A stretch of 64,000 nucleotides of DNA from assembly GCA_963702435.1 (NCBI GenBank), contig CAVPCR010000004.1, positions 370,829 through 434,828 on the forward strand, given 5' to 3'. Under the pieces are notes generated by a model. The model saw only the letters and a program-made list of their open reading frames with translations, did no database searches and had not been told where the DNA came from. Numbering within the stretch: the first letter of the stretch is position 1; each line of letters begins with the position of its first letter. A program made the translations under genes and the position numbers. Shown here piece by piece: positions 4,909-45,185 of this stretch. Origin of the DNA: Candidatus Eiseniibacteriota bacterium (GTDB taxonomy: Bacteria; Eisenbacteria; RBG-16-71-46; CAVPCR01).

Positions 4909-6951
4909 TCAGCGGTCGACGACGACGACGCGCTGGACCGCCGATTCGGTGCCGGCGGTGAGCTGCAAGAAATAGACGCCAGGCGCGAGATCCTGCGCCA
5001 AGGCGAAGCGATGGGTGCCGCTCGCCTGCTCGCCGTCGGCGAGCCGCGCGGCGACGCGGCCGGCGACATCCACCACGCGGAGCGCGACGCGCCCGGAGCG
5101 AGGCAGCGTGTACTCGCCGGCAAAGGGGCCCGGGGCGGGGTTCGGGTGGATCGGCGCGAGACTCAAGGCCAACCCGGGCGCGCCCGGCGCGGCGGGGTCG
5201 GCGGGCCCGATCGCCACCGGCGGCACCTCGACCGCGCCGCGGAGGATCCAGAAGTACGGGTCGAAGAGGAGCGCTACCGGTTCGCCGCCCGCGGGCACCG
5301 TGAAGGTCTGGACCTCGAGGCTGTCGGCGATCACCGACCACGTCGTGTCTCCGCCGGCCGTCACCACCCCGATGTCGATCGGCATCTTGAACGGCGGGGC
5401 ATCGATCTGCTCCTGCTCGACGTTCAACGTCACCGCCCAGGCGCCGCCGCCCAGGTTCACGGGCAGCCACCAGTAGGCGTAGAGGGGCTTCCCCGGGTTG
5501 TACACCCACTCGGCGAAGAACCAGTCGAGGCTCTGCCCGTGGAGGTTCTCGGCGAGGGTTTGGAAGTCGGCGGTCACCGCGTTCCCGTAGGCGTACCGGA
5601 TCGCCCACTCCCGCAGGAGCTGGCTGAAGAGCGCATCGCCCATCACGTGGCGCAGCATGTGCAGCACCCAGGCGCCCTTCTTGTAGACCGTGCTGCTGAA
5701 CAGATAGGTGGGGTCGTACACCGGGCCCTGGAACGAACCGACGTCGAGACTCCGCATGTAGTAAACGTAGGCGGCAAAGCCCTGCTGATCCTCGACCCAC
5801 ACCGCCTCCGAGAAGGTGGCGAAGCCCTCGTTGAGCCAGATGTCCCGCCAGTCGCCGAGCGTGACCAGGTCGCCCCACCACTGGTGGGCGAGCTCGTGCG
5901 CGACCACCCAGTCGTAGGTGTGATCGCCGCGCACGAGCCCCGCCGAGTAGCTCGTGCAGGTCTGATGCTCCATGGCCCCGCCCCACTGGAACATGGCCAT
6001 GCCGTACTTCTCGTCGAGGAACGGGTACTCGCCGAAGCGGGCGGCGAAGGTCTCGATCATGGGAACGGTGACGCTCCAGTCCTCCTGGGCCTGCGCTAGC
6101 CGCTCCGGATACGAGTAGAAGACGACCGGCATCGGGTCGTGGCCGGGGACGACGTACTCGTCCTGGAAGACGACGTAGTTGGTGGCGGTGACGCTCACGA
6201 GGTAGGTCGCGATCGGATAGGACTCGACCCAGTGGAACGTGGTCAGGCCGGGGGCCGACGAGGTCTGCCCGAGGAGCGTGCCGTTCGACGCGACGACCAT
6301 GGTGTCGGGCACCGTGAAGTGGAGCGTGGCGGTGGCCTTGTCGTTGGGCACGTCCTTGCACGGCCACCAGTTCCGGGCGTAGGTGGGCTCGGAGAGCGAG
6401 GCCACGATCTGGGCGCCGGAATGCAGGCCGAAATCGAACGCGAGGAATCCGCCGACCGCCGGCTGGCCGGCGTAGGCCACCCGCACGGTGAACGGCTCGC
6501 CGGGGGCGAACGAGCGGTCGAGCGTGATGGTGAGGAGATCGTTCGCGTGCGTGTAGGCGAGCGGCGTGCCGTTGCGATCGACCTGGCTCACGGTCAACGC
6601 GTTGTGCAGATCGAGCACGACCATGGCGAGCGCCGGCACCGTGCTCTCGCTCGTCATGGTGAGGAGGCCGGACACCGCTTCGGTCGTGAAGTCGATGTCG
6701 AGCGCGAGATCGTAGTGGCGGACGTCGAAGTCCTCCTGGCCTTCCGCCGGCTGAAAGCGGTCCGGATCGCGCAGCAGCTCGAGCGAGTGCTTGGCGTCGA
6801 TGAGCGGATGCGGTTCCTCGGGAATCGCCATCCCGGCCGTGGCTGATCCGCCCGCGGTCACCGGGAGGAGGAGCGCCGTGCACAGCAGCGCGCGAGCGGT
6901 CCCCCCCGAGTGGAAGAGCCGAGGAACCTTCATGGACGGGAGAACCTCCAT
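4909..6951 (-). CDS. M1-family zinc aminopeptidase with C-terminal FlgD-Ig/T9SS-type sorting domain
   Basis: Signal peptide, GAMEH exopeptidase motif and HELAHQWWG...WLNEGFATF (HEXXH-18-E). The C-terminal about 80 aa (...VALRVVDVAGRVAARL...GVYFLQLTAG...VVVVDR) form a CTD. Confidence 0.9.
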   Translation of the reverse strand: MEVLPSMKVPRLFHSGGTARALLCTALLLPVTAGGSATAGMAIPEEPHPLIDAKHSLELLRDPDRFQPAEGQEDFDVRHYDLALDIDFTTEAVSGLLTMTSESTVPALAMVVLDLHNALTVSQVDRNGTPLAYTHANDLLTITLDRSFAPGEPFTVRVAYAGQPAVGGFLAFDFGLHSGAQIVASLSEPTYARNWWPCKDVPNDKATATLHFTVPDTMVVASNGTLLGQTSSAPGLTTFHWVESYPIATYLVSVTATNYVVFQDEYVVPGHDPMPVVFYSYPERLAQAQEDWSVTVPMIETFAARFGEYPFLDEKYGMAMFQWGGAMEHQTCTSYSAGLVRGDHTYDWVVAHELAHQWWGDLVTLGDWRDIWLNEGFATFSEAVWVEDQQGFAAYVYYMRSLDVGSFQGPVYDPTYLFSSTVYKKGAWVLHMLRHVMGDALFSQLLREWAIRYAYGNAVTADFQTLAENLHGQSLDWFFAEWVYNPGKPLYAYWWLPVNLGGGAWAVTLNVEQEQIDAPPFKMPIDIGVVTAGGDTTWSVIADSLEVQTFTVPAGGEPVALLFDPYFWILRGAVEVPPVAIGPADPAAPGAPGLALSLAPIHPNPAPGPFAGEYTLPRSGRVALRVVDVAGRVAARLADGEQASGTHRFALAQDLAPGVYFLQLTAGTESAVQRVVVVDR

Positions 6952-7398
6952 CGGGAGCCGGGGGTGAATCGCGCCGGGACGGATCGCGGGGGCGGGGCGA
7001 TCGCGAGGGCGCGAGCAGGGCGCGGTCCCGTCGCTCGAGCTGCCGGTGCGGAACCCAAGTGCAGCGACGGGATGCCGCGAGACGCACTCGACGCTGATAC
7101 ATTATACACCACGCGCGAACCACGAGACGGACAGGGTGGTTCGGGGGCCGCCGGCCCGGGATCGCAGCGCGCCGCGGGCGGCCGGATGGCCCGGCGCGAG
7201 CGGGGTTTGGGTTGACGCACCCGGGCTTGCGGAGGACAATCGTGGGGTTAAGTCACCTTATCGGCCACCGATGCGCCGCAGCGAGCGGCGGCTCCCGGTG
7301 CCCGTGAGTTCGGCGCCCGGCTCCCCCACGGGTGCGGCCGCGTGCGGGCGCCGGGTCGGCATCGTGGGCGGCCCCGGGCCGCGGCCTCCGTCAAGACC

Positions 7399-8760
7399 AT
7401 GTCCCAATCCTGTCCCCCCAACGCCCGTCGCAGAGCGCGCCTGATCCTCCTCCTGGTGCTCGTCCCGGCTTTCGCCGGGACGGCCTGTGTTCCGGTCTAC
7501 GAGCGGCGACTCGACGCGCTCCGCGACGCGGGCGATCTCGCTTCCGCCGCCGACCTCCTGGCCGATGCTGGGGCCCGCGCTCCCGAGAACCCCGGCATCC
7601 GCCGGGAGACGGGGATTCTCTTCTTCGAGCGCGGCGAGACGGAGGAGGCGATCGCGGAGCTCGAGAAGTCCCTGGCGCTGGACCCGACCGATGCGCGCGC
7701 CGCGGTCTACCTCGGTGCTGCGTACGAAACGGCGGGACGCTTCAGCGAGGCCGCGGCGTGCTACCGGCAGGCGGCTGCTACATCCACGGCAGACGCCGGC
7801 GTCGCGGCGGCCCTCGCCTGCCAGCGGAGTCTCGTCGAGTCGCGCCATCTCGGGGATCTGATCGCCGCACGCCTCGCCGCGGAGAAGGCCGGCACCCTGC
7901 CCGCGGCAGAGCGGATCCTCTTCCTGCCGTTCTCCGTGTACGGCACGAACCCGGAGGCGATGACCCTCCGCCTCGGGCTCGCGGCGGTGGCGAGCGCCGA
8001 CTGGCGGGGGACTCCGCCGGCAGTCCCATTCGCCGAGCTGGATGCCTTGTTCGCGGCGCTCGGTGTGCCGACCGAACGCACGATCGACGCGGAGATGCAG
8101 GAGCGCCTCGCGCGTCTCACCGGCGCGCGCTATGTGATCACCGGTCAGATCTCGGAGCTGCGCGAGCTCGTTTCGGTGGCTCCGGTCCTCATCGATCGCG
8201 GCGCTCCGGCCGGCGCGGATTCGTCGGGGGCGGAATCCGGCGCAGCATCGGCGCAGGAGACGCGTCTCGCCTACCAGCAGGAGCATGTCGGTGCGCTCGT
8301 GGTGCTCGAGGAGGAGCTCCTGCAGAATGTCGCCTCGGCCCTCGCCGTCGAGCTCGCGGCGGCGGATGCCGCTGCCGCCCGCCGCTTCTCGGCGCGCAGC
8401 GGCCAGGCCATCGCCCTCTACGGTGAGGCGCTCTTCCTCGAGCGATCGGGGGATCCGGCCGCCGCCGCCGAGCGACTTGCCGCGGCGACCGCTCTCGATC
8501 CGGAGTTCGATCTCGCGCGTGATGCGAGTCTCCGTCTCTCATCCTGCCCTGGCGCGGCCGGGGACCCGGCCGCTCTCATCAGCTCCTACGAGCGCGCGCG
8601 CCGGGAGATGGCCGGAGACGACCGCGAGCGCGAGCTCCTCGCCGGGACCACGGAGACCGTGGGGCGCGTCGGCGGCGCGGAGGGCGAGAGCGACAACTAC
8701 TCGGTCAACCGGGCGGGTTCCTCGGGGTCGGCGGTGTTCCCGGTGCGGCTGCCGCGATGA
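7399..8760 (+). CDS. TPR-repeat lipoprotein with CsgG/LpoB-like central segment
   Basis: ORF 7342-8760; I prefer the ATG at 7399 (MSQS...LILLLVLVPAFAGTAC lipobox). TPR-like helices (EEAIAELEKSLALDPTDARAAVYLGAAYE). The central ILFLPFSVYG...ARYVITGQISEL resembles CsgG/LpoB-type lipoproteins, but weakly. Confidence 0.6.
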   Translation: MSQSCPPNARRRARLILLLVLVPAFAGTACVPVYERRLDALRDAGDLASAADLLADAGARAPENPGIRRETGILFFERGETEEAIAELEKSLALDPTDARAAVYLGAAYETAGRFSEAAACYRQAAATSTADAGVAAALACQRSLVESRHLGDLIAARLAAEKAGTLPAAERILFLPFSVYGTNPEAMTLRLGLAAVASADWRGTPPAVPFAELDALFAALGVPTERTIDAEMQERLARLTGARYVITGQISELRELVSVAPVLIDRGAPAGADSSGAESGAASAQETRLAYQQEHVGALVVLEEELLQNVASALAVELAAADAAAARRFSARSGQAIALYGEALFLERSGDPAAAAERLAAATALDPEFDLARDASLRLSSCPGAAGDPAALISSYERARREMAGDDRERELLAGTTETVGRVGGAEGESDNYSVNRAGSSGSAVFPVRLPR

Positions 8761-9950
8761 AGCGGATCAGCACATGCTTCGCGCTCGCCGGGCTCGTGCT
8801 GGCGATGCCTGCGGTCGCCGACCAACCCGGACCGGAGCCGCTGGTCATGGCCCCCGCGTCCGAGCTCCTGCCCGGGGATCGCGTGTTCCCGCTGGCGGTG
8901 GCCGCGACCGAGGTCGAGATGGCCCTCGACTACCGGACGTGGTCGGTCGAGGAGGAGAACGGCGAGTCGAGCGTCGACCAACTCGCGTTCCCCGTGGTCG
9001 TGCGAAGCCGGCTCCACGCCAATCTCGATTTCTCCTACCTCTTCACCGTCGCCTCGTCCTCGCTCGACTTCGAGAGCGGGGGCGACGATCTCTCCGGCAT
9101 CACCGACGGCAAGCTCGGCGTGACCTATCTCCTGCCCGATCGCCGCTTCTCGCTCGGCTTCGGCCTGCGCATCCCGTCCGGCGAGAGCGAGCTCGATCCC
9201 GGCGAGGAGACCGTGGCGCAGGTCCTGAACGACCGCATCCTCGGCTTTCGCGTGAAGCGGTACGGCGAGGGTCTCGACGTCGAGATGCGCGGCGGCTACG
9301 CGACGACCCTGGGCAGCCGGACGGCGGTGGCCGCCGCCGTCTCGTACCTGGTGAAGGGGAACTTCCCGATCCTCGACCCCTCGACTGAGGCGGAGTCCAC
9401 CTACGAGCCGGGGAGCGAGTTCTCCGTCGTGGGGCAGATCAGCTCCCGCGCTGCGGCCCGCGACTTGAGCGGCCGGCTCCGCATCGCCGCCTACGGCCGC
9501 GACCGGCGGGACGGGGTGGACGAGATCGAGGAGGCAGCCGAGGTGGAGCTCGACCTCGGCGTGGTCGAGGAGCACCTGGCCGGCGTCGTGGTGCTCGACA
9601 CATCGTTCCTGCTCAAGGGGAACACGCAGATCCTGAGCGCGGACGGGCTCACTCCGGTGCGCGATGTCGGCGGCAACATCTGGCGTCTCGGCGGCGGATT
9701 CTACGGAAAGCTCGATGCACGGAGCGAGCTCGGAGGGCGGGCCGACCTGAGCCTGTACGGAGAAGGCGAGCAAGGGACCGGCGACGGTCTCGTCTTCGCG
9801 ATCGGCCCCCGTTACCGCCGCGACCTGGGCGGCGGTCTTGCCGCGGGTCTCGGCTACACCTTCTCCGTGGGCAACACCGAGGACGGCACGATCGATCTGA
9901 CCGGGCACGATCTGACGGTCACGCTCGGCTACGGCTGGGGGCGGCGATGA
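8757..9950 (+). CDS. Putative outer-membrane beta-barrel protein
   Basis: Signal peptide MKRISTCFALAGLVLAMPAVA followed by alternating hydrophobic beta-strand-like pattern throughout. ATGA overlap with the upstream gene. Confidence 0.5.
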   Translation: MKRISTCFALAGLVLAMPAVADQPGPEPLVMAPASELLPGDRVFPLAVAATEVEMALDYRTWSVEEENGESSVDQLAFPVVVRSRLHANLDFSYLFTVASSSLDFESGGDDLSGITDGKLGVTYLLPDRRFSLGFGLRIPSGESELDPGEETVAQVLNDRILGFRVKRYGEGLDVEMRGGYATTLGSRTAVAAAVSYLVKGNFPILDPSTEAESTYEPGSEFSVVGQISSRAAARDLSGRLRIAAYGRDRRDGVDEIEEAAEVELDLGVVEEHLAGVVVLDTSFLLKGNTQILSADGLTPVRDVGGNIWRLGGGFYGKLDARSELGGRADLSLYGEGEQGTGDGLVFAIGPRYRRDLGGGLAAGLGYTFSVGNTEDGTIDLTGHDLTVTLGYGWGRR

Positions 9951-10897
9951 TCCCGCGCGCGGCGACGGTCCTGCGCGCAGCGATGATCCCGCGCGCGGCG
10001 ATGGTCCTGCGCACGAGGCCCCGGCGCGCGCGTTGCGTTACCGCGCTCGGCCTCCTGGCCGTCCTGCTCCTCGCCGCGCGCTGCGCCGACGATCCCGCCG
10101 TCGCTCCCTTCCTGCCGCCCGGCGAGGCGGCGATCGAGCTCCGGCTCCTGGCCGGCGAGCTGGCGCCTCCTCCCGCGCCCGGCGCCCCGGCGGGGCCGGG
10201 GGTCGCCCCCTGCGAGCCGCCGCTGCCGGGTCTCGGGGACGTGGTCGCGGTCGAGATCGTGCTGCGCGCCGGGAGCGGCGAGGCGCAAACGCACAGCTTC
10301 GAGATCCCGGCCCACACCGAGTCGAGCGAGCTCGTGATCGACGGACTCGCGGCCGGCAACGGCTATCGCGCGACCGTTACCGCGAGCGTGGACAAGGAGC
10401 CGCTGTTCACGGGCGAGAGCGGCGTCTTCGCGGTGCAGCCGGGCAGCCGCGCCACCGTCGCCGTCCCCCTCCTGCCGGTCGGCCGCCGCGCCGTGCTCGC
10501 GGTCGGGAAGCCCGCTCCCTCCGGGGACGACGTGATCCTGCCCATCCTGGCTGCGAACTCGCTCCCGCTCCGCGGGGTCGAGCTCGATCTCTGCTACGAC
10601 CCCGCCGTGCTCCTCCCGATCGGGGCGGCGGCGGCAGGATCGCGCGTCGCCGCCTTTCGCGGCGCCGGCGGCGAGCCCGTGGAGAGCGGTATCTATCGCG
10701 CCGTTCTGTGGTCGGAGGACGGCGCGGCGCGCATCGGTGCCGGGCAGGACCAGGTTCTCGAGCTCCGTTTCCGTTTCCAGGCCGGTGTGCCGGCCGGCAC
10801 CGTGACCGACCTCGTCTTCGTCGCTGCCCTGGTCGCCGATGATGCTGCGGCGCCGCCGTTCGCGACGTACTTCCTCGACGGGCAGGTGACGCGATGA
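9947..10897 (+). CDS. Cohesin-like domain protein
   Basis: The N-terminal hydrophobic segment is followed by a C-terminal half (VILPILAANSLPLRGVELDLCYDPAVLLP...LELRFRFQAG...) that fits the cohesin pattern. ATGA overlaps on both sides. Confidence 0.5.
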   Translation: MIPRAATVLRAAMIPRAAMVLRTRPRRARCVTALGLLAVLLLAARCADDPAVAPFLPPGEAAIELRLLAGELAPPPAPGAPAGPGVAPCEPPLPGLGDVVAVEIVLRAGSGEAQTHSFEIPAHTESSELVIDGLAAGNGYRATVTASVDKEPLFTGESGVFAVQPGSRATVAVPLLPVGRRAVLAVGKPAPSGDDVILPILAANSLPLRGVELDLCYDPAVLLPIGAAAAGSRVAAFRGAGGEPVESGIYRAVLWSEDGAARIGAGQDQVLELRFRFQAGVPAGTVTDLVFVAALVADDAAAPPFATYFLDGQVTR

Positions 10898-13800
10898 ACG
10901 CCTCGTGCGGTCCGCGCCGCGCACTCAGGGCGTTGCCCGTCTGTCTGATGCTCGTGGCCACCGGTCTCGCGGCGGCCGCTGCGCCGGCCCGCGCCCAGAG
11001 CCCGCCCGTCTCGGTGCCCGGCGGACCCTATGCCGGCAACGAGGGCGAACTGATCGCCTTCGACGGCACGGGCTCCTTCGATCCCGACGGCGGCGCGCTG
11101 ACCTACCTCTGGGATTTCGGCGACGGCGGGACCGCCACCGAGGCCGCGCCCACTCACACCTTCACGACCGGCGGCCTTTTCACGGTGACGCTCGTCGTGA
11201 CTGACGGTGAAGACCTCTCCGATACCGGTACGACGTCGGCCGGCGTGAACGGGACGCCGGTGGCGGAGGCGAACGGGCCGTACACGGGAAACGAGGGAGC
11301 GGCCATCAGCTTCTCGTCGGCGGGGTCGAGCGATCCGGACGGGGATGCGCTCACGTACCGGTGGACGTTCGGGGACGGGGCGACCTCGACGGCGGCGAAC
11401 CCGACGCACACCTACGTGACGGGCGGGCCGTTCACGGCGACGCTGCAGGTGACGGATCCGGGCGGGCTGTTCAACGAAGACACGGCGGCGGTTACGGTGA
11501 ACGGGACGCCGGTGGCGGAGGCGAACGGGCCGTACACGGGAAACGAGGGAGCGGCCATCAGCTTCTCGTCGGCGGGGTCGAGCGATCCGGACGGGCAGCC
11601 GCTCACCTATCGGTGGGACTTCGGGGATGGGGGGACATCCACCCAGGCCAATCCGAACCACACGTACACAACCGGTGGGACCTTCGCAGTGACGCTCCGC
11701 GTCACCGATCCCGACGACCTCTTCGACGAAGACACGACGACGGCAACCGTGAATCGGCCGCCGGTGGCGGAGGCGAACGGGCCGTACACGGGGAACCAGG
11801 GCCAGTCGATCGCGTTCTCATCGGCGGGGTCGAGCGATCCCGACGGGGATGCGCTCACGTACCTGTGGACGTTCGGGGACGGGGCGACGTCGACGGCGGC
11901 GAATCCGAGCCACACCTACGCGACGGGCGGGGTATTCAGTGTCGTCCTCCGCGTCACCGACCCTGACAATCTGTTCGATGAGGACACGGCGACGGCGACG
12001 GTGAACCGGCCGCCGGTGGCGGAGGCGAACGGGCCGTACGCGGGGAACGAGGGAGCGTCCATCAGCTTCTCGTCGGCGGGATCGAGCGATCCCGAGGGGC
12101 AGGCGCTCGCCTATCTGTGGACGTTCGGGGACGGGACGACGTCGACGGCGGCCAATCCCAGTCATGCTTACACGCCGGGCGGCGCCTTCAACGTGACGCT
12201 CCGCGTGACCGATCCCGGTGGGCTCTTCAGCGAGGACACGGCGACGGCGACGGTGAACCGGCCGCCGGTGGCGGATGCGAACGGGCCGTACACGGGGAAC
12301 GAGGGAGCGTCCATCAGCTTCTCGTCGGCGGGATCGGGCGACCCGGACGGGGGCGCCGTGACCTATCGCTGGAACTTCGGGGACGGGTCGACCTCGACGG
12401 TGGCGAACCCGAGCCATACCTACGCGACCGGGGGCGTGTACACGGTGACGCTCGTGGTCACCGATCCAGGCGGGTTGACCGCGACGGATCTCACGAGCGC
12501 GACGGTGAGCGGGACGCCGGTAGCGGAGGCGAACGGGCCGTACACAGGGAACCTGGGCCAGGCGATCGCGTTCTCGTCGGCGGGGTCGAGCGATCCCGAC
12601 GGGCAGCCGCTCACGTATCTGTGGACGTTCGGGGACGGGACGACGTCGACGGCGGCGAATCCGAGCCACACCTACGCGACGGGCGGGGTATTCAATGCCA
12701 TCCTTCGCGTGACCGACCCGGGCGGGTTGTTCGATGAGGACACGGCGACGGCGACGGTGAACCGGCCGCCGGTGGCGGAGGCGAACGGGCCGTACGCTGG
12801 GAACCAGGGCGCACCGATCGCGTTCTCGTCGGCGGGATCGAGCGACCCGGAGGGGCAGGCGCTCACGTACCTGTGGACGTTCGGAGACGGGACGACGTCG
12901 ACGGCGGCCAATCCCAGTCACGCTTACACGCCGGGCGGCACCTTCGACGTGACGCTCCGCGTGACGGACCCGGGGGGGCTCTTCAGCGAGGACACGGCGA
13001 CGGCGACGGTGAACCGGCCGCCGGTGGCGGAGGCGAACGGGCCGTACACGGGAAACGAGGGAGCGACCATCAGCTTCTCGTCGGCGGGATCGGGCGACCC
13101 GGACGGGGGCGCCGTGACCTATCGCTGGAACTTCGGGGACGGGTCGACCTCGACGGTGGCGAACCCGAGCCATACGTATGCGACCGGGGGCGTGTACACG
13201 GTGGCGCTCGTGGTCACCGATCCAGGCGGGTTGACCGCGACGGATCTCACGAGCGCGACGGTGAGCGGGACGCCGGTAGCGGAGGCGAACGGTCCTTACG
13301 GAGCGAACCTGGGCCAGGCGATCGCGTTCTCGTCGGCGGGCTCGATCGATCCGGACGGGCAGGCGCTCACGTACCTGTGGACGTTCGGAGATGGGACGAC
13401 CTCGACCGGGGAGAACCCGAGCCACACCTACGCGACGGGCGGGGTATTCAATGTCGTCCTTCGCGTGACCGACCCGGGCGGGTTGTTTGATGAGGACACG
13501 GCGACGGCGACGGTGAACCGGCCGCCGGTGGCGGAGGCGAACGGGCCGTACGCTGGGAACCAGGGCGCGCCGATCGCGTTCTCGTCGGCGGGATCGAGCG
13601 ACCCGGAGGGGCAGGCGCTCGCCTATCTGTGGACGTTCGGGGACGGGACGACGTCGACGGCGGCCAATCCCAGTCACGCTTACACGCCGGGCGGCACCTT
13701 CAACGTGACGCTGCGCGTGACGGACCCGGGCGGGCTCTTCAGCGAGGACACGGCGACGGCGACGGTGAACCGGCCGCCGGTGGCGGAGGCGAACGGGCCG

Positions 13801-16800
13801 TACGCGGGGAACCAGGGTGCACCGATCGCGTTCTCGTCGGCGGGATCGAGCGACCCGGAGGGGCAGGCGCTCGCCTATCTGTGGACGTTCGGGGACGGGA
13901 CGACGTCGACGGCGGCCAATCCCAGTCACGCCTACACGCCGGGCGGGACGTTCACGGTGACGCTGCGCGTCACGGACCCGGGCGGGCTCTTCAGCGAGGA
14001 CACGGCGACGGCGACGGTGAACCGGCCGCCGGTCGCCGATGCGAACGGGCCGTACGCGGGGAACGAGGGCCAGCCGATCGTATTCTCATCGGCGGGATCG
14101 AGCGACCCGGAGGGACAGGCGCTCACGTACCTGTGGACGTTCGGGGACGGAGCGACGTCGACCGCGGCGAATCCGAGCCACACCTACGTGACGGGCGGGA
14201 CGTTCAACGTGACGCTTCGCGTCACCGATCCGGGCGGTCTCTTCACCGAGGACGCGACACAGGCCGCCGTCGGCCGCACCCCCGTCGCCAACGCGAACGG
14301 GCCGTACACGGGGAACGAGGGCCAGCCGATCGCGTTCTCATCGGCGGGTTCGGGCGATCCCGACGGGCAGCAGATCACGTACCTGTGGACGTTCGGGGAC
14401 GGAGCGACCTCGACCGCGGCGAATCCGAGCCACACCTACGTGACGGGCGGGACGTTCACGGTGACCTTGCGCGTCACCGATCCCGACAATCTCTTCGCCG
14501 AGGACACGGCGCAGGCGCGGGTGAACCGGACGCCGGCGGCGGAGGCGAACGGGCCGTACAGCGGCAACCCCGGCGCTCCGATCGCGTTCTCGTCGGCAGG
14601 GTCGAGCGATCCGGACGGCGACGGGCTCACCTACCGCTGGAGCTTCGGGGACGGGGCGACCTCGACGCAGGCGAACCCGAGCCACGCGTACGCGGCGGGC
14701 GGGACGTACACGGTCACGCTCCGCGTGACCGACCCCGGCGGCCTGTTCAACGAGGATACGGCGCAGGCCGTGGTGAACCGCCCGCCGGTGGCCGAGGCGA
14801 ACGGGCCGTACGCGGGGAACCAGGGAGCAGCCATCAGCTTCTCGTCAACGGGGTCGAGCGATCCGGACGGGCAGGCACTCACGTATCTGTGGACCTTCGG
14901 CGACGGCACGACCTCGACCGCGGCGAACCCGACGCACTCCTACACACCGGGCGGCTCGTTCATCGCGACGCTCCGCGTCACCGATGCCGGCGGCCTGTTC
15001 GCCGAGGACACGGCGCCGGTGGCGGTGAATCGCCCGCCCGTCGCCGACGCCGGACCGGCTCTCTACACCACCGATCGCGGCGTCCCGGCGAGCTTCTCGT
15101 CCGCGGGGTCGAGCGATCCGGACGGCGATCCGCTCACCTATCTCTGGGAGTTCGGGGACGGGACGACCTCGACCCAGGCGAACCCGACGCACATCTACAC
15201 CGCGGGCGGGGCCTTCACGGTGAACCTCCGGGTGCGCGATCCGGGAGGTCTCACCGGCACCGACCTGGCAGCCATGTCCGTGAACGACCTCGCGGTCACT
15301 GCACCGGCGACGGGTGCGGTGTGGTCGGAGGGCTCGACCCAGACCATCACCTGGAGCGTCGTCGGCACGGTGGACACCGTCGTCGTCGAGTATCGGACCG
15401 GCGCCGCCCTGCCCTGGATCCCGCTCGGCACGGTGATCCGCGACACCGAGCTAGAGTGGCAGGTGCCCGACATCGGCACCAGCGACGAGACGGGCGTGCG
15501 GGTCCGCGTGCGCCGCCCGAACGGATTGCTCTCCGACCCGAGCGATCCCTTCACCATCCGGAACCGCGTGCTCCTCGTCACCGCGCCCGGGGGCGATGCG
15601 ATCTACGAGACGGAGGGGACCAACATCGCGTGGACGAGCGTCGGTTTCATCGAGCGGGTGAATCTCCAGTACCGTCTCGCGCCGGGGAGCCCGTGGCTCC
15701 CGATCGCGGCCGATGAACCGGATGACGGGAGCTTCGCCTGGACCCTCCCCGAGGTGACGTCGGATCAGGAGCGCGCGCAGGTCCGGGTGCTCGATGCCGC
15801 CGATACGCTCGCCACATCGGACGCGAGCGCGGAGTTCGCGATCCTCGATCGCACGCTCGCCGTCGATTCGCCTGACCTTGGCGTCGTCTGGTCGGAGGGG
15901 ACCACGCAGACGATCGCCTGGACCGTGGACGGGCCGGTGGACTCGGTGGCGATCGAGTTCCGCCGGAGTCCCCTCGACGGCTACGAGCAGATCGCGCGCC
16001 GCCGGGCGAGCGCGGGCAGCTACTCCTGGTCGGTGGCGGGAGTCACGGCCGACGCCCCCGAGGCGCAGGTACGCGTGCGCGAGACCGCAACGCGCATCGA
16101 TCCGGTCGCCGGCGTGTCCCCGGTGTTCACGATCCAGAACCGCACGCTCGCGATCACCGCCCCGGTCGCCGGCGAGGAGATCTCCGAGCGCGCGCCGTAC
16201 ACGATCCGCTGGCAGAGCGCGGGACGTATCGACAACGTGCGCGTCGAGTACCGGCTGCAATCGGCCGCTCCGTGGCAGGAGATCGCGGCGTCGGCGCCGA
16301 ACACGGGTGCCTACCTGTGGGCCGACCCGCCGGAGGTGACGAGCGACGAGAGCGCGGCGGAGATCCGGGTGACCGATGTGGCCACGGTTCCCGATCTCAC
16401 GCAGACCGTGAGTCCGCCGTTCACGCTCGTCGACCGCGTGCTCGCGCCGACCGCGCCCGCGCCCGGAGCCGTCGCCTGCGAGGCGGATACGCTCACGATC
16501 GCCTGGGGCTCGCGCGGGGCGATCCCGAACGTGACGATCGAGTGGCGGCTCGATCAGGGCTCGCCGTGGCAGCCGGTGGCGACGAACATCTCGAACACGG
16601 GATCGGCAGTCTGGTCGACGCCGGATCTCCCGGCGACAGCAGATGCGGTCGAGCTCCGCCTGCGCCATGCGACCGACCCGAGCGTGGTCGCCGCCTGGGG
16701 GCCCGTAACGCTCCGGAACCGCACGCTCGCGTTCCTCCGGCCGCTCGGCGGCGAGGTCTACTCAGAGGGCGACGCGGTGCCGGTGAGCTGGAGCTCCGAT

Positions 16801-19059
16801 TGCATCGATTCGGTGCGCGTCGAGGCCCGCGTCGACGCCGAGTCACCGTGGCAGCTCCAGGGCCCCGGCGTGTGGTCCAACACGGGCCAGATCATCTGGA
16901 GTGTCATCCGCGTCGACACCAACCAGAACGCGGTCCAGCTCCGCATCGCCGACGCCTCCGACCCCGATCTGGTCGTCGCCGTGTCGCAGCCGTTCACCGT
17001 GCTCAACCGGGTGCTCGACGTCGTGCGCCCGACGGTCACCGACAGCCTGTCGGAGACCGCGACCTTCCCGATCGCCTGGGACTGGGTCGGCACGTTGCAG
17101 CGCGTGACGATCGATTACCGTCTCGATCCCGCGCTCGACTGGGTGCCGATCATCAGCAACATCGTGAACACCGGCACCTACACTTGGACCGTGCCGCTCG
17201 TGGATCGCGACCACCGGAGCGCCCAGATCCGGGTCTTCGACACCAACAACCCGAACACGATCGACGAGGGGGACTCCTTCATCATCATCAACCGGGCTCT
17301 TGCGCTGACGCGCCCGGCGCCGGGCGACACCCTGACCGAGGCGACGGCCGACACGATCCGCTGGTCGACGCGCGGCGTCGTGCCGACGGTGAATGTGAGC
17401 TATCGCGAGCAGCCGGTCGGCGCCTGGCAGGTGATCGCGGCGGGCATTTCGAACACCGGCGTTCTGGCCTGGTCGGTGCCCGAGGTGAGCGGCGATGTCG
17501 TGGGCGCCCAGGTGCGGGTCGAGTCCGCCACGGCGCTTGAGGTGTCCGCCGTGAGCCTGCCCTTCGTCATCCTCGATCGCTCCTTCGCCGTGCTCTCGCC
17601 CGCCGGCGGCGAGAGCTGGTCCGAGGCGACGACCCAGACGATCCGCTGGCAGTCGGTGGGCACCATCGAGTCGGTGAAGATCGAGCTCCTGCTCCCGGGC
17701 GGCGGGACGCAGCTCATCGTCGCCTCGACTCCGAACGACGGCGCCGAGACGTGGTTCATTCCCGATGTCCCGGCGGGCATCGCCGGCGCCCGGATCCGCT
17801 TGACCGACACGCGCCCGCCCTCGGCCAGCGCCACCTCGGCCCCGTTCGACATCGTGAACCGCGCGCTGGCCTTCACCGCGCCGCCCCCCGAGCCTGGGGT
17901 CCAGTGGCGGATCGGGTCGGCCCAGGTCATCCGCTGGACCTCGACCGGGGCCATCGATTCGGTGGCGATCGAGCTCGGCCGGAACGGCCCGGGAGGCGCC
18001 TTCGAGACCCTGATGCCGGCGACGATCAATGACGGGGACTTCGCCTGGGAGGTGACCGGTCCCGAGACGTGGAATGCGGTGCTTCGCGTGCGCGACCTGC
18101 GCGTCGCCGATATTCGCACAGAGACGCCGCTTCTTGCGCTCTATGATCTGGTGCCGCCGGATCTGTGCGCCGATTTCGACCACTCGGGCGGCGTATCGCT
18201 CGACGAGATCGTGCGCGTCGAGGGCATCATCGTCGGCGCGCTCGCGGCCAGCGAGGCGGACTCGCTCGCCGCGGACGGGACGCGTGACGCGGCGATCGAT
18301 ATCCGCGACATCCTGTGCGGCGTGGACGAGATGATTGCGGGCGAACGCGCCGGGAAGGGGCGGCCGTTCGTCGATGCGGGAGTGGAGGAGGCGGCCGCGC
18401 GCGGCGTCGTCGTCGGTGTCGGGGCGGTGGCGGAATCCGGGAGCGTGCCGATCACGGTCGAGGCGCGGGTGCTGCTCGCCGGCCTCCTCGTCGCGATCGA
18501 GATCGACGGCGGGAGCGGCGAGCCCGCGCTCGGGGCGGAGGGCGCAGGGCTCGCCCTCGCCTGGACCGCGACCGGACCCGGCCGTTTCACGGCGACCGTG
18601 CGCCGCGAACCCGGCGGCGCGGGGCTTGCGGCCGGGACGAGCACGCCGCTCCGCGTGCTCGTGCCGGCGAGCGGCGGGGGCGGGGCGGTCGTGCGCATCG
18701 TGCGCGCCGAGGCGGTGGCAATGGACGCGACCCTTCTCCCCGTGCACATCGCCGGCGGGGCCGCGGCCGTCGTGCCGCCCCGGGTCGCCCTCGGCCAGAA
18801 CCGGCCGAATCCGTTCAATCCGGTGACCGTGATCCCCTTCGAGCTGCCGGCGGCCGCGCGCGTCACGCTCGCGGTGCACGACGTGAGCGGACGCCTGGTC
18901 TCGCGTCTCGTCGATGGTGCGGTGTTGCCGGCCGGCTACCACGCCGTGCGCTGGGACGGCCACGACGCGCGCGGCGCCGTCGTGCCGAGCGGCATCTACT
19001 TCGCCACGCTCCGCGCCGGCGGCGAGACCATCACCCGCAAGATGACCGTCATCCGCTGA
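10894..19059 (+). CDS. Giant secreted surface protein: 17 PKD repeats, ten 95-aa repeats, dockerin-like and cohesin-like segments, FlgD-Ig/T9SS-type CTD
   Basis: 2,721-aa uninterrupted ORF with a signal peptide (...AAPARA/QS). PKD consensus WDFGDG...TH.Y...G.Y.V.L.V.D is repeated. C-terminal ...NRPNPFNPVTVIPFELP...VHDVSGRLVSRL...WDGHDARGAVVPSGIYFATL...KMTVIR. Confidence 0.9.
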   Translation: MNASCGPRRALRALPVCLMLVATGLAAAAAPARAQSPPVSVPGGPYAGNEGELIAFDGTGSFDPDGGALTYLWDFGDGGTATEAAPTHTFTTGGLFTVTLVVTDGEDLSDTGTTSAGVNGTPVAEANGPYTGNEGAAISFSSAGSSDPDGDALTYRWTFGDGATSTAANPTHTYVTGGPFTATLQVTDPGGLFNEDTAAVTVNGTPVAEANGPYTGNEGAAISFSSAGSSDPDGQPLTYRWDFGDGGTSTQANPNHTYTTGGTFAVTLRVTDPDDLFDEDTTTATVNRPPVAEANGPYTGNQGQSIAFSSAGSSDPDGDALTYLWTFGDGATSTAANPSHTYATGGVFSVVLRVTDPDNLFDEDTATATVNRPPVAEANGPYAGNEGASISFSSAGSSDPEGQALAYLWTFGDGTTSTAANPSHAYTPGGAFNVTLRVTDPGGLFSEDTATATVNRPPVADANGPYTGNEGASISFSSAGSGDPDGGAVTYRWNFGDGSTSTVANPSHTYATGGVYTVTLVVTDPGGLTATDLTSATVSGTPVAEANGPYTGNLGQAIAFSSAGSSDPDGQPLTYLWTFGDGTTSTAANPSHTYATGGVFNAILRVTDPGGLFDEDTATATVNRPPVAEANGPYAGNQGAPIAFSSAGSSDPEGQALTYLWTFGDGTTSTAANPSHAYTPGGTFDVTLRVTDPGGLFSEDTATATVNRPPVAEANGPYTGNEGATISFSSAGSGDPDGGAVTYRWNFGDGSTSTVANPSHTYATGGVYTVALVVTDPGGLTATDLTSATVSGTPVAEANGPYGANLGQAIAFSSAGSIDPDGQALTYLWTFGDGTTSTGENPSHTYATGGVFNVVLRVTDPGGLFDEDTATATVNRPPVAEANGPYAGNQGAPIAFSSAGSSDPEGQALAYLWTFGDGTTSTAANPSHAYTPGGTFNVTLRVTDPGGLFSEDTATATVNRPPVAEANGPYAGNQGAPIAFSSAGSSDPEGQALAYLWTFGDGTTSTAANPSHAYTPGGTFTVTLRVTDPGGLFSEDTATATVNRPPVADANGPYAGNEGQPIVFSSAGSSDPEGQALTYLWTFGDGATSTAANPSHTYVTGGTFNVTLRVTDPGGLFTEDATQAAVGRTPVANANGPYTGNEGQPIAFSSAGSGDPDGQQITYLWTFGDGATSTAANPSHTYVTGGTFTVTLRVTDPDNLFAEDTAQARVNRTPAAEANGPYSGNPGAPIAFSSAGSSDPDGDGLTYRWSFGDGATSTQANPSHAYAAGGTYTVTLRVTDPGGLFNEDTAQAVVNRPPVAEANGPYAGNQGAAISFSSTGSSDPDGQALTYLWTFGDGTTSTAANPTHSYTPGGSFIATLRVTDAGGLFAEDTAPVAVNRPPVADAGPALYTTDRGVPASFSSAGSSDPDGDPLTYLWEFGDGTTSTQANPTHIYTAGGAFTVNLRVRDPGGLTGTDLAAMSVNDLAVTAPATGAVWSEGSTQTITWSVVGTVDTVVVEYRTGAALPWIPLGTVIRDTELEWQVPDIGTSDETGVRVRVRRPNGLLSDPSDPFTIRNRVLLVTAPGGDAIYETEGTNIAWTSVGFIERVNLQYRLAPGSPWLPIAADEPDDGSFAWTLPEVTSDQERAQVRVLDAADTLATSDASAEFAILDRTLAVDSPDLGVVWSEGTTQTIAWTVDGPVDSVAIEFRRSPLDGYEQIARRRASAGSYSWSVAGVTADAPEAQVRVRETATRIDPVAGVSPVFTIQNRTLAITAPVAGEEISERAPYTIRWQSAGRIDNVRVEYRLQSAAPWQEIAASAPNTGAYLWADPPEVTSDESAAEIRVTDVATVPDLTQTVSPPFTLVDRVLAPTAPAPGAVACEADTLTIAWGSRGAIPNVTIEWRLDQGSPWQPVATNISNTGSAVWSTPDLPATADAVELRLRHATDPSVVAAWGPVTLRNRTLAFLRPLGGEVYSEGDAVPVSWSSDCIDSVRVEARVDAESPWQLQGPGVWSNTGQIIWSVIRVDTNQNAVQLRIADASDPDLVVAVSQPFTVLNRVLDVVRPTVTDSLSETATFPIAWDWVGTLQRVTIDYRLDPALDWVPIISNIVNTGTYTWTVPLVDRDHRSAQIRVFDTNNPNTIDEGDSFIIINRALALTRPAPGDTLTEATADTIRWSTRGVVPTVNVSYREQPVGAWQVIAAGISNTGVLAWSVPEVSGDVVGAQVRVESATALEVSAVSLPFVILDRSFAVLSPAGGESWSEATTQTIRWQSVGTIESVKIELLLPGGGTQLIVASTPNDGAETWFIPDVPAGIAGARIRLTDTRPPSASATSAPFDIVNRALAFTAPPPEPGVQWRIGSAQVIRWTSTGAIDSVAIELGRNGPGGAFETLMPATINDGDFAWEVTGPETWNAVLRVRDLRVADIRTETPLLALYDLVPPDLCADFDHSGGVSLDEIVRVEGIIVGALAASEADSLAADGTRDAAIDIRDILCGVDEMIAGERAGKGRPFVDAGVEEAAARGVVVGVGAVAESGSVPITVEARVLLAGLLVAIEIDGGSGEPALGAEGAGLALAWTATGPGRFTATVRREPGGAGLAAGTSTPLRVLVPASGGGGAVVRIVRAEAVAMDATLLPVHIAGGAAAVVPPRVALGQNRPNPFNPVTVIPFELPAAARVTLAVHDVSGRLVSRLVDGAVLPAGYHAVRWDGHDARGAVVPSGIYFATLRAGGETITRKMTVIR
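10999..15291 (+). repeat. Tandem array of 17 PKD-domain coding repeats (252 bp / 84 aa each)
   Basis: I counted 17 units, each starting (A)NGPY.GN.G..I.F and ending ...TV(N/S)(R/G)(P/T)PVAE. The length of 4,293 bp is 17.0 x 252. Confidence 0.9.
12001..14016 (+). repeat. 756-bp higher-order repeat (3 PKD units), 2 full copies plus a partial third
   Basis: Blocks start at 12001, 12757 and 13513 with the same GTGAACCGGCCGCCGGTGGCGGAGGCGAACGGGCCGTACGC. Units 5-6-7 match units 8-9-10 at roughly 90-95% nt identity by eye. Shadow ORFs recur at a 756-bp offset (12117, 12873, 13629). Confidence 0.85.
15292..18147 (+). repeat. Ten divergent about 95-aa repeats of an unassigned Ig-like module
   Basis: Each unit follows the pattern L.(V/I)..P..G..W..G....I.W...G.I..V.IEYR......W..I......G.Y.W.VP.V.S....(V/I)RV.......S..F.I.NR. 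2,856 bp is 10 x 95 aa. Confidence 0.8.
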
Positions 19060-19105
19060 GGGCCACCGCCGAGATCCCGGTCGCGCGTACGACCGCGGTC
19101 AGGGC

Positions 19106-20464
19106 TCAGAACATGAGCGAGTACGCGACCGAGACCGTGCTGCCCGTCTGTCCCGCCGTGTAGTACCCGAACGTGCTCCCCACCGGGGAGCGGTTGACGC
19201 CGATGTACTGGATGTTCAGGCGGGTATCGCGCGTCTTGAACGGGTAGAAGTTGCTGCCGATCAGGTACTCGTTGGAATTGCCGAAACCGGCATCCTCGTC
19301 ACCATAGATCTGGGATGTGGCGACATAGGCTTCCAGCTTCCTGGGCACGGGAAAGCAGGAGGCCTGGACGTAGAAGCCGTGGTCCACGATCTGGTCGATG
19401 GGCAGGGGGGCGTCGGCCTCGAACTGGTCGAGCCAGCGCACGTAATGCTCGAACTGCACGAAGAACCCCTTGTACTTCGCGCCGATGTCGGCGGCCACGA
19501 TTCGGTAGTCGAGGTTGTCGACCGTCGCGCCGGGAGCGAGGGCCCCCGTGTCGAAGACGTTGGTGGCATCGGCCAGCTTGATGGTGGTGTTCTTGGACGT
19601 CCCGGTGCCGTTGAAGCTCTGCTCCGGGCTGTAGCAGGCCGAGACGCCGAAGCGCGTGGCGATCTGCTCGTGCATCTCATAGTCGCCGTAGGCGCCGCGC
19701 GGTCCGAACTCGCCCGTCGGCATGTACCACGCGGAACCGCTGAACGTCGCGTTGCGGTCGAGATCGGAGGCCTTGACTCCGAGGATGCTGTTGCTGTTGC
19801 CGGCCATGGCGCTGTACCAGAAGCCACGGAAGAGCTCGCCGTTGGCATAGATGCCGGCGCCGAAGAAGGGCCGGAAGAACTCGTCGGCCATCACGCGGTC
19901 ATGACCGAGCCAGTAGGGATGCGAGCCGAGGATCGAGCGGGTGCCGGCATTCCCGGCGATGCCACCGTAGAGGTTGAAGTAGCGACTGAACTGGTAGCCG
20001 ACGTTCCCGAAGAGAGCGTCCTGGTCGGTGGTGTTCACGGTCCAGATGGTGAAAGTGTAGATCAGCTTCGGATCGAACATCCAGCCCTTGAGCCAGATGA
20101 TGATGCGGTGCGGGTAGAAGTCCTGGCGAGCATCGACCGGATGCTGGTTGCCCAGATGGTCGGTGTAGGTCTGCTCGCCCGGCATCTGGTTCATGTACCG
20201 CAGGACGGCGTAGGCGCTGATCGCCAGTTCCCCGCTGGACGTACGGGCGACCAGGAATCCCCGGCCGGGGTCATAGGTGCCATATGTCTCATGCTCCGGG
20301 AGAGTGGGAGCATCCTTCCCGCCGGCCGTCGAATCGGACGGTGCGGCGTTCACGGCGGCCGCCGAATCAGGCCTCGCGGATTCGTTTCCGGCGGCGATCG
20401 CGGGGGTCATCCAGAGGACAGTGCAGACCACCATCACCGGCCACAGCTTGGAACCAGCATTCAT
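19106..20464 (-). CDS. Outer-membrane porin (phosphate-selective-porin-like beta-barrel)
   Basis: ORF 19106-20629; I prefer the ATG at 20464 (MNAGSKLWPVMVVCTVLWMTPAIAA signal peptide). It is aromatic- and Gly-rich with beta-strand periodicity and a terminal ...VAYSLMF. Confidence 0.7.
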   Translation of the reverse strand: MNAGSKLWPVMVVCTVLWMTPAIAAGNESARPDSAAAVNAAPSDSTAGGKDAPTLPEHETYGTYDPGRGFLVARTSSGELAISAYAVLRYMNQMPGEQTYTDHLGNQHPVDARQDFYPHRIIIWLKGWMFDPKLIYTFTIWTVNTTDQDALFGNVGYQFSRYFNLYGGIAGNAGTRSILGSHPYWLGHDRVMADEFFRPFFGAGIYANGELFRGFWYSAMAGNSNSILGVKASDLDRNATFSGSAWYMPTGEFGPRGAYGDYEMHEQIATRFGVSACYSPEQSFNGTGTSKNTTIKLADATNVFDTGALAPGATVDNLDYRIVAADIGAKYKGFFVQFEHYVRWLDQFEADAPLPIDQIVDHGFYVQASCFPVPRKLEAYVATSQIYGDEDAGFGNSNEYLIGSNFYPFKTRDTRLNIQYIGVNRSPVGSTFGYYTAGQTGSTVSVAYSLMF

Positions 20465-20988
20465 GACGACGACCCTTTCTGTTGACGGGCGGCGGGGGCC
20501 ATTGGCATCCTCTCTCCGGTTGGTCGCGGCGCGAAGACGGTTGGGGCAACGTTCCGTGCCATGCTTCTTTCTCCGTCGGGGAGGCATTCTAGTCTCGTCC
20601 ACCCTGATCATCAACCGGACAGATGACACGCCGCGGCGGCTCGTGATCCTTGCACACGCGAGCTGCCCCCAGACCTGGTGCGCAGATGGCCGCGGTGTAC
20701 GGTGACCCGGCCCGCCTGCTGCGCCGGGGATTCCTGCGCCGGCGCGCTGGTCGAGCCCGTCATCGGATCGATTCCACTACGCGGCTGGTCTGGGCGGCAC
20801 CATCCGGTCAGCGGCGGGATGGATTCCCCGGCCCTGACGGGCCGGGAGTCCGACAGGCCGAGAACAGGAAGGTTGGCATGTTTGATGCTCATCGCGGGCG
20901 AAGTTTTCCCGCCTCCGCCACGAGGTCTCGTATATCATTGCGCGCCGTCACGAGGGCGGCGATTGCGGCCAACGGCCGAGAGCTCCCT

Positions 20989-22149: not shown

Positions 22150-22223
22150 CGAAGGGTGCCCGCCGGGGATGAGATTCCCGGCTCGACGACGCCACGGACG
22201 TGGCGAACACAGGGAGGAAGGCG

Positions 22224-42530: not shown

Positions 42531-43385
42531 GTGATCGAGATCATGTCGCCGCGGGATGCGATCCAGTCCGAGTTCGCGCTCGGCGCGGCGGAGTCCGATC
42601 CGGGGCCGCCGCCGGCCTGGATCACCGAGCCCGCGAACGAGGAGGCGATCGCGAGCGCGCTCGCCGAGCTCGATCCTGAGCAGCAGGCGGCGGTCACGCA
42701 CGGCGAAGGGCCGCTCCTCATTGTCGCCGGCGCCGGCACCGGGAAGACGCGCGTCATTGCGCATCGCATCGCCTATCTCATCGCCGCCAGGAAGGCCGAG
42801 CCGTCCGAGATCCTCGCGCTCACCTTCACCGAGCGCGCCGCGGCGGAGATGGAGGCGCGGGTCGATCTCCTCGTCCCCTATGGCTACACGGACATGTGGA
42901 TCTCGACCTTCCATGCCTTCGGCGACCGTATCTACCGCGAGTACGCGCTCGAGATGGGGCTCTCCGATGCGGCGGTCGTCCTGAACGAGGCGGAGCGGCT
43001 CGTCTTCTTCCGCGAGCGGCTCTTCCGCCTCCCGCTCCGGCGCTTGCTGCCGCTCGGAAACCCGGTGCGCCACCTGGCGGCGCTCCTGCGCGTCGTCGCG
43101 CGGGCGAAGGACGAGGGGGTGACGCCCGAACGCTACGTCGAGCACGCGCGCATCGAGCTCGATGCAGCGGCGGCGGAGGCGGCGGCCGCCGCCGATGATC
43201 TCGACGCCGGCGCCCGCCTCGCCGCGGCGCGCCGACAGCTCGAGATCGCCGAGACCTACCGGGCCATGGACGAGGAGCTGCACGCGGCCGATCGCATCGA
43301 CTTCGGCGATCAGCTCCTCCTCACGCTCCGCCTCCTCCGCGAGCAGGAGCACGTCCTCGCCCAGGTGCGCCGCCGCTTCCGCTAA
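42531..43385 (+). pseudogene. UvrD/PcrA-like helicase, N-terminal 284 aa only
   Basis: Walker A LLIVAGAGTGKT and motif Ia ILALTFTERAA are present. The ORF stops right after ...VRRRFR, where helicases continue with the DExx box. Repeat copy C follows. Confidence 0.8.
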
Positions 43386-43436
43386 TCGCGGTCGCCGATC
43401 GCGTGCACGCCTTCGTCGATCACCTCGAGCTCCTGG

Positions 43437-43675: not shown

Positions 43676-43686
43676 ATCCCTTCGAC

Positions 43687-45182: not shown

Positions 45183-45185
45183 GGC

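Follow-up and report, generated by a model that had tools for sequence, protein, structure and literature searches.

In a 64-kb stretch of a Candidatus Eiseniibacteriota bacterium (assembly GCA_963702435.1, contig CAVPCR010000004.1, positions 370,829 to 434,828; hereafter the window), four translationally coupled genes, referred to as g1 to g4, form a conserved unit in Eisenbacteria. They encode a tetratricopeptide repeat (TPR) lipoprotein candidate, a predicted outer-membrane (OM) beta-barrel, a small protein with a cohesin-like domain, and a giant repeat protein carrying a dockerin-like segment and a C-terminal domain (CTD) resembling those of type IX secretion system (T9SS) substrates (Table 1). 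Of the roles considered for this operon we tentatively favour tethering of the giant adhesin at the cell surface rather than its export, whereby an OM platform of g1 and g2 would present the g3 cohesin, which in turn would capture the dockerin of the CTD-secreted g4. The original prediction for this locus had singled out the co-encoding of cohesin-like and dockerin-like parts with a lipoprotein and a barrel, an observation that largely holds, and had read it as a self-contained device for export and anchoring, which we revise below.

Because the window has about 70% G+C, the open reading frames (ORFs) were assessed by G+C content at codon positions; all four forward-strand ORFs show coding-type values at the third position (GC3 0.85–0.90) and ordinary values at the second (GC2). 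As originally noted, g1/g2, g2/g3 and g3/g4 are joined by ATGA start/stop overlaps, located at exactly 8757, 9947 and 10894 (context ...cgATGAa...), and these overlaps are kept in relatives spanning 47–80% protein identity: L001, L002 and L004 retain the whole set, and L007, L008 and L010 single ones. No terminator-like site was found inside the operon in the 12 kb scanned. The order g1–g2–g3–giant PKD protein is present in L001 (an 852-kb contig), L002/L003, L004, L007, L008, L010 and L020 (a 4.58-Mb contig of an Eisenbacteria-like genome) and recurs in every Eisenbacteria locus recovered; co-occurrence of the four genes thus extends beyond this contig, and likeness to cohesin, dockerin and CsgG was found among their products or relatives. 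The g1 core, barrel and g3 are adjacent in all Eisenbacteria-type loci, and g3 and g4 are neighbouring and translationally coupled in every one of them. Most of these loci also have a common upstream flank (ABC transporter, DUF4340, Rce1-like), and small indels surround the intact four-gene module, involving an M1 peptidase, an epimerase and, in the window, four genes downstream of g4. The latter four, which lie between g4 and an inositol monophosphatase gene, are extra relative to both L001 and L002.

The C-terminal domain of g3 is predicted to adopt the cohesin jelly-roll fold, the nine-strand beta-sandwich of solved cohesins, in line with the earlier description of this half as cohesin-like. 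An AlphaFold2 (AF2) model based on 12 sequences had a predicted local distance difference test score (pLDDT) of 82.3, rising above 90 in the C-terminal domain, and its Foldseek matches in the PDB were mostly cohesins, many of them from cohesin–dockerin complexes, with target-normalised TM-scores (TMt) of 0.6–0.74 over 142–150 columns and root-mean-square deviations (rmsd) of 3.1–4.2 Å. The best cohesin example was 4uyq_A (TMt 0.74, rmsd 3.2 Å), and the non-cellulosomal 2xdh and 2jh2 were also matched. Sequence comparisons point the same way: 12 of 17 g3 homologues match Pfam Cohesin at E<=0.1 (best E=3.7e-5), and nearly all PDB matches of a g3 profile were cohesins, at marginal E-values. A conserved Cys terminates the signal peptide (…LLAARC-ADDPAVAP), and g3 is possibly lipidated. 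The gene opens with a tandem duplication of 36 nt (window 9947–10018), which encodes MIPRAATVLRAA / MIPRAAMVLRTR; in view of the single copy of this unit in P0023, a homologue 95% identical to g3, the functional start may be the second ATG (9983).

The putative partner of this cohesin in g4 is a tandem pair of segments of about 22 residues, in both of which an EF-hand-like calcium loop precedes a helix (DFDHSGGVSLDE plus helix and DGTRDAAIDIRD plus helix), which is the organisation that defines dockerins. Conservation of the dockerin-like segment is strong in L001, L002 and L020, and the segment can still be recognised in Caldithrix. A four-sequence profile of it found dockerins as its best PDB matches (4uyp_B, E=1.8e-5; 4uyq_B, 1.2e-3; 5nrm_B, 7e-3), with the alignment to 4uyp_B spanning both dockerin segments, and dockerin chains made up about half of the 23 PDB matches of a five-sequence profile. 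Pfam Dockerin_1 matches in orthologues are weak (L002, E=0.083; Caldithrix, E=0.028), and the corresponding segment of the L020 orthologue matches EF-hand_1 only. The dockerin-like character assigned at first is therefore upheld by conservation and profile matches, and the 17 PKD repeats and ten repeats of about 95 aa described with it were likewise recovered, the PKD array showing at the DNA level a period of 252 nt with 15.9 copies and 79% matches. The FlgD-Ig/T9SS-type assignment of the CTD was also confirmed by scores above the curated cut-off for PF13860 (30.9 vs 27) and at the cut-off for TIGR04183 (23.0 vs 23). Only a single protein was recovered in a homologue search with the C-terminal 219 aa of g4, an outcome probably due to Ala/Gly-rich words filling up the list of candidates. 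A second cohesin, previously placed between the dockerin-like segment and the CTD, is not supported by sequence comparisons: the conserved 148-aa module at this position has no Pfam match at E<=10 in five orthologues, aligns to the g3 cohesin with an hhalign probability of 1.9%, and yields no cohesin among its matches in a PDB profile search. The giant protein varies in repeat number among relatives, from 2,162 to 2,721 aa, and in L001 (12138–19303) its orthologue comprises two overlapping ORFs (766 and 1,625 aa), which may stem from a frameshift in the PKD array or from faulty assembly of it.

The product of g2 is confidently predicted to be an OM barrel, as its signal peptide and strand pattern had first suggested. 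The AF2 model (18 homologues; pLDDT 80.4, predicted TM-score, pTM, 0.76) has about 16–18 long antiparallel strands, together with a conserved loop helix and a GF-x-V-K/R-R-Y-GEG motif, and a Foldseek search against the PDB returned OM barrels only (NalP, FadL/TodX, OccK, CymA, OmpG, FapF; query-normalised TM-score, TMq, <=0.53). On this model the fold matches are generic and no specific family emerges. There was no Pfam or NCBIfam family match to g2, and seven family members searched at Pfam E<=10 gave stray matches only (Phenol_MetA_deg, PorP_SprF, OMP_b-brl). Several known barrel types were considered and rejected, namely PorP/SprF (PF11751), unmatched by g2 itself and matched by one of seven family members at E=0.017; Slam, as no match to its DUF560 barrel was obtained and TPR_Slam in g1 is below cut-off; and Omp85/TpsB or CsgG, for which no model matched. 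In distant family members the last residue is the canonical C-terminal Phe. When 1.84 billion representatives were searched with a profile, 1,120 clusters (defined at 50% identity) were recovered at E<=1e-3, of which 757 reached E<=1e-10; the family is large, yet it is unnamed and has no Pfam model.

For g1, the sequence comparisons indirectly support a TPR lipoprotein with a CsgG/LpoB-like core. The lipoprotein and TPR features are evident in the protein itself, in that the signal peptide ends ...FAGTAC, its terminal Cys is kept in all orthologues in a lipobox-like context, and Pfam recognises TPR repeats. The CsgG/LpoB-like core of the original prediction is reached by way of distant relatives: the window g1 matches no CsgG or LpoB model in Pfam or NCBIfam, while distant homologues match PF03783 (CsgG) at 25–66 bits against a cut-off of 20.8, as well as PF13036 (LpoB) and PF17680 (FlgO), and a profile of the Eisenbacteria g1 core aligns to these distant cores with an hhalign probability of 95.7% (E=1e-8). 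In PDB sequence searches the whole g1 profile found only TPR proteins and the core alone nothing meaningful. The CsgG matches of all relatives are confined to profile positions ~8–108 of 210, corresponding to the periplasmic alpha/beta half, and the channel-forming hairpin region in the second half is unmatched in all g1 relatives; a CsgG-type channel for g1 is thus unsupported. Weak TPR_Slam matches occur in g1 and its relatives (E=0.016 to 1.6e-5, 16–26 bits vs a cut-off of 35.2). The C-terminal tail (8530–8757; …GGPEGEG-x-N-L-S-x-NRP…GS…PV-x-LPR) is conserved in Eisenbacteria and faint in distant relatives, and may be a contact element for the barrel.

Three CTD proteins are encoded in the 64 kb: g4, an M1 peptidase with a weak Por_Secre_tail match and a 274-aa protein with FlgD_ig. 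Because the g4 CTD is shared with these two unrelated proteins, we infer that g4 most simply crosses the OM by a general CTD-dependent route, with no need for export by g1 and g2. Drawing on the observed or predicted folds, sequence features and conservation, cohesin–dockerin binding, the topology of g3 and T9SS dependence can be envisaged as follows. The giant protein would cross the inner membrane via Sec and the OM via the organism's general CTD-dependent route, while g1, facing the periplasm, and g2 would together make up a platform in the OM for positioning or exposing g3. Binding of the g4 dockerin by the g3 cohesin would then hold the C-terminal end of the adhesin at the cell surface, the dockerin adjoining the CTD and thus presumably being cell-proximal after secretion. 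The g1–g2–g3 trio would represent a local version of a widespread module, recruited to adhesin display. Platforms of an OM barrel with lipoprotein or TPR components that retain surface adhesins have been documented experimentally for PorP–PorE–PG1035 and SprF–SprB (PMC9143113), and the GltABHK/C OM platform has been shown to retain the CglB adhesin (PMC9946355); these may be regarded as functional analogues of the proposed tether. In its favour we count the conserved overlaps with one promoter-like site and no internal terminator, the synteny in Eisenbacteria, the predicted g3 cohesin fold, the dockerin matches of the g4 profile and the confident g2 barrel model, the Caldithrix tail and neighbouring 310-aa weak-Cohesin protein and the L020 cohesin/dockerin/CTD proteins (both described below), and the two further CTD proteins of the window, which are consistent with a general CTD route.

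Several observations weigh against a tether. The window g3 scores 17.3 bits (E=0.0056) against a Pfam Cohesin (PF00963) cut-off of 24.1, its lipobox is atypical (Arg at −1), and the g4 segment in the window has no Pfam Dockerin (PF00404) match. Should g3 face the periplasm, its contact with the dockerin would be a transit step rather than an anchor. No T9SS core genes were seen among the scanned genes of the 64-kb window, the rest of the genome not having been searched. Synteny among close relatives is largely vertical inheritance, because these have the same flanks, and is not independent evidence. Lastly, distant g1–g2–g3 relatives occur without a giant adhesin or dockerin, and for this reason the primary role of the trio may be something else.

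These relatives show that g1 and g2 are part of an envelope module that is widespread and has no name. An hmmsearch over all fetched loci placed a g1 core directly upstream of the barrel wherever upstream sequence exists, and g3 or a g3-like gene lies directly downstream in all but four of them. The products of the genes after the barrel in distant loci carry a common lipoprotein signal (C-[TAS]-EKI[TV]N) and can be aligned over about 290 residues. Comparison of g3 with single proteins of this kind by hhalign and BLASTP gave nothing significant, and the g3 profile aligned with the gene-after-barrel profile in register but weakly (29.8%, E=5.6e-4), suggesting that g3 may be a universal member of the g1–g2 module. 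Four loci, including a Zixibacteria metagenome-assembled genome (L023; the others are L005, L021 and L025), share one arrangement in which forward genes encode a Ser/Thr kinase, a CsgG/LpoB-like protein, a TPR plus CsgG-like protein, the barrel and a lipoprotein, and in which four unknown genes converge on these forward genes and are followed by TssG, a TssF-size gene, TssE and VgrG. In L015 the trio comes after TssK, TssM and TagF on the same strand. Kinases preceding the trio often carry periplasmic PEGA domains, and the relatives adjacent to type VI secretion system (T6SS) genes suggest an undescribed T6SS-associated OM module.

Two loci from Caldithrix (L009 and L024) begin with two or three kinases (TPR or PEGA), two CsgG-like TPR proteins and the barrel, and continue with a 1,670-aa fn3 giant, a 310-aa weak-Cohesin protein and an FHA/FliN_C protein. 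The tail of this giant, which ends in Por_Secre_tail, has the succession dockerin-like – module – CTD seen in g4, and the same parts are found in another phylum, Calditrichota, in a gene order that differs from that of Eisenbacteria. In L020 (18642–21194) two further proteins come after the giant. The first, of 705 aa, combines two or three cohesin modules (Cohesin 7e-14) with a dockerin (Dockerin_1 4e-4) and a FlgD_ig CTD, and the second is another cohesin protein; these neighbours tie the locus to cohesin–dockerin biology. A wider proposal, of which we are rather doubtful, is that g1–g2–g3 constitutes a widespread undescribed OM module, made up of one or more CsgG/LpoB-like TPR lipoproteins, an unclassified barrel of ~16–18 strands and an Ig–cohesin-like lipoprotein, whose function would be to display a variable surface protein and link it to the envelope, being wired to PpkA-like Ser/Thr kinases and T6SS in Zixibacteria-type genomes, Calditrichota and others, and by cohesin–dockerin contact to a T9SS-type giant adhesin in Eisenbacteria.

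The same neighbourhoods could be explained by trans-envelope sensing, in which g1–g2–g3 would be an OM signalling platform and g4 a surface antenna in Eisenbacteria, relaying contact or strain inward. Such a role would fit the trios found right after a Ser/Thr kinase and beside T6SS baseplate genes (L005, L021, L023 and L025), after TssK–TssM–TagF (L015) and between kinases and an FHA protein (Caldithrix), and it resembles the logic of TagQRST–PpkA–Fha1 in the Pseudomonas T6SS. However, we consider it unlikely, given that the link is one of gene adjacency only, that no kinase, FHA or T6SS gene is present among the window genes scanned, that g1–g4 contain no known signalling domain, and that the Eisenbacteria operon has a single g1 where two CsgG-like paralogues are found elsewhere. 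The cohesin, dockerin and CTD proteins following the L020 giant bring to mind a cellulosome-like network instead, with the g3 cohesin and the g4 dockerin each binding proteins encoded elsewhere and the operon forming one node of a larger surface scaffold; assemblies of this kind, with CTD-bearing scaffoldins, have been proposed for Cloacimonadota, which belong to the Fibrobacterota–Chlorobiota–Bacteroidota (FCB) group (PMC8542988). This seems improbable for the present operon, as g3 directly precedes g4 and is translationally coupled to it in all Eisenbacteria loci, and neither another cohesin or dockerin protein nor a dockerin-bearing enzyme was detected in the window.

Export, the role assigned to g1 and g2 in the original prediction, would make them a dedicated channel of the CsgG, two-partner or Slam type, which would secrete g4 or bring the g3 lipoprotein to the surface by flipping it, independently of a general system. 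The cargo is indeed encoded together with a barrel and a CsgG-like TPR lipoprotein, TPR_Slam matches occur below cut-off in g1 and relatives, and the gene after the barrel nearly always encodes a lipoprotein, as with Slam and its substrates, although this suits flipping of g3 better than export of g4. We nevertheless hold a dedicated exporter to be a poor prospect: the T9SS-type CTD of g4 is shared with unrelated neighbours, the CsgG similarity leaves out the channel-forming half, g2 matches no Omp85/TpsB, DUF560, PorP or CsgG model and has generic fold matches, and a folded protein of 2,721 aa is unlikely to pass through a monomeric barrel of 16–18 strands that has a loop inside it. Together with the occurrence of the g1–g2 module elsewhere without a giant adhesin and the unsupported second cohesin, these points leave the idea of a self-contained export device weak. 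It is very improbable that the four genes are no functional unit and were merely co-inherited as neighbours in one lineage. The upstream flank common to close relatives would allow inherited synteny, yet the 4-bp overlaps persist in relatives with 47–80% protein identity, the flanks vary (M1 peptidase, epimerase, four downstream insertions) around a group of four that remains intact, and the same parts recur in Calditrichota.

Table 1. Coordinates of the operon, its domains and other features of the window, and of selected regions in related loci
Feature	Position	Strand	Remarks
Sigma-70-like promoter	7212–7240	+	Sole match in 6900–19300, upstream of g1; consensus match only, weak evidence
g1	7342/7399–8760	+	ORF; 453-aa lipoprotein candidate from ATG 7399; GTG 7342 is an alternative start
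g1 TPR repeats	~7528–7818	+	Pfam, residues 44–140
g1 CsgG/LpoB-like alpha/beta core	7879–8358	+	
g1 C-terminal TPR-like part	3' of core	+	Followed by conserved tail ending ...PVRLPR
g2	8757–9950	+	ORF; 397 aa, signal peptide, predicted OM beta-barrel
g3	9947–10897	+	ORF; 316 aa
g3 Ig-like sandwich	~10121–10477	+	N-terminal half
g3 cohesin-fold domain	~10487–10894	+	Predicted from AF2 model and Foldseek
g4	10894–19059	+	ORF; 2,721-aa giant surface protein
g4 Sec signal peptide	10894–10995	+	Ends at ARA/Q
g4 PKD repeats	10999–15288	+	17 repeats, 84-aa (252-nt) period
g4 Ig-like repeats, Kre9/KNH-like	15289–18111	+	Ten, ~95 aa each, residues 1466–2406
g4 dockerin-like segment	18145–18360	+	Two EF-hand-type loops, helix after each (CADFDHSGGVSLDEI… / AADGTRDAAIDIRDILCG); two conserved Cys
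g4 conserved 148-aa module	18358–18801	+	Between dockerin-like segment and CTD; fold unclassified
g4 FlgD_ig / T9SS type A-like CTD	18805–19059	+	Includes stop codon
M1 peptidase	4909–6951	−	Weak Por_Secre_tail match
Inserted genes	19106–24479		Porin-like 507-aa ORF ending ...YSLMF (no Pfam match), amidohydrolase, DcaP-like OM protein, glutaminase
Truncated UvrD	42531–43385		
Y2_Tnp transposases	47605–48921, 56291–57193		
274-aa protein	50286–51110	−	FlgD_ig
IS21-like rve + AAA_22 pair	51580–53936		
GH63-like gene	58647–60992		Split into two ORFs
Trio beside T6SS genes	L005 7686–21116; L021 3743–19080; L023 5785–21140; L025 997–16110; L015 400–12939		Related loci
Caldithrix kinases/FHA regions	L009 2473–7104 and 17152–18873; L024 1–6809		Related loci; in L009 followed by FHA + FliN_C protein

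Further downstream the window is rich in mobile elements (42531–62513), with lower G+C and a stronger GC skew at 50–52 kb.

Among known systems, cohesin–dockerin anchoring, whether cellulosomal (type I/II, e.g. ScaB/ScaC, OlpA/OlpC) or non-cellulosomal (Archaeoglobus 2xdh, C. perfringens 2jh2), resembles the operon in the jelly-roll of g3 and in the duplicated calcium-loop/helix of g4 with its dockerin spacing. It differs in that the host here is a Gram-negative member of the FCB group, a single cohesin resides on a small, possibly lipidated protein, the g4 dockerin is internal, with a module and a T9SS-type CTD after it, a giant adhesin without enzymatic function serves as the cargo, and both window segments fall below Pfam cut-offs. 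Cellulosomes are defined by a multi-cohesin scaffoldin and dockerin-bearing enzymes, whereas here there is one cohesin protein and the dockerin is carried by a non-catalytic repeat protein. The CsgG, LpoB and FlgO domains are related to the g1 core through the homologues matching PF03783, PF13036 and PF17680; unlike in those proteins, only the N-terminal alpha/beta half is matched, the domain is fused between TPR segments, and no curli genes are present. In the T6SS activation pathway of Pseudomonas, TagQRST–PpkA–Fha1, OM lipoproteins act upstream of a kinase. The distant g1–g2–g3 relatives located between Ser/Thr kinase and T6SS genes are comparable to it in gene context, and the window differs in having no kinase or T6SS genes among those scanned.

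T9SS type B anchoring (PorP–PorE–PG1035, SprF–SprB; PMC9143113) likewise places a giant adhesin or CTD cargo beside a dedicated OM barrel and a TPR-containing, OM-associated lipoprotein, and would share with the operon the proposed surface tether. In contrast to that system, g2 is not detectably PorP/SprF, g1 is without the WD40 and OmpA_C domains of PorE, the g4 CTD is type A/FlgD_ig-like rather than type B, and a cohesin–dockerin pair is interposed. The Myxococcus Glt platform (GltA/B/H barrels, GltK lipoprotein and GltC; PMC9946355) is similar in combining OM barrels and a lipoprotein with a periplasmic helical-repeat protein in one complex, which controls both retention and exposure of the CglB lipoprotein adhesin. 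The likeness noted is at the level of the system, the adhesin type differs, and the present operon has no motor link.

In agreement with the original prediction, no description of a system with this composition was found in the literature, the nearest being the cellulosome-like system inferred for Cloacimonadota (PMC8542988), which also combines cohesin, dockerin and T9SS-type CTD within the FCB superphylum but relies on a multi-cohesin scaffoldin and dockerin-bearing hydrolases and has no barrel/lipoprotein operon. The parts of the Eisenbacteria operon are of known kinds, while their combination and the unnamed barrel family are undescribed. That the g2 family recurs beside kinases and T6SS genes suggests that it belongs to an envelope module not yet characterised and worth defining, and the tether proposal is directly testable with small recombinant domains. 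If the tether is real, it would extend the use of cohesin–dockerin pairs to adhesin display in a Gram-negative candidate phylum, and would add a third anchoring mode for CTD-secreted surface proteins to covalent attachment to anionic lipopolysaccharide (A-LPS) and PorP-type binding.

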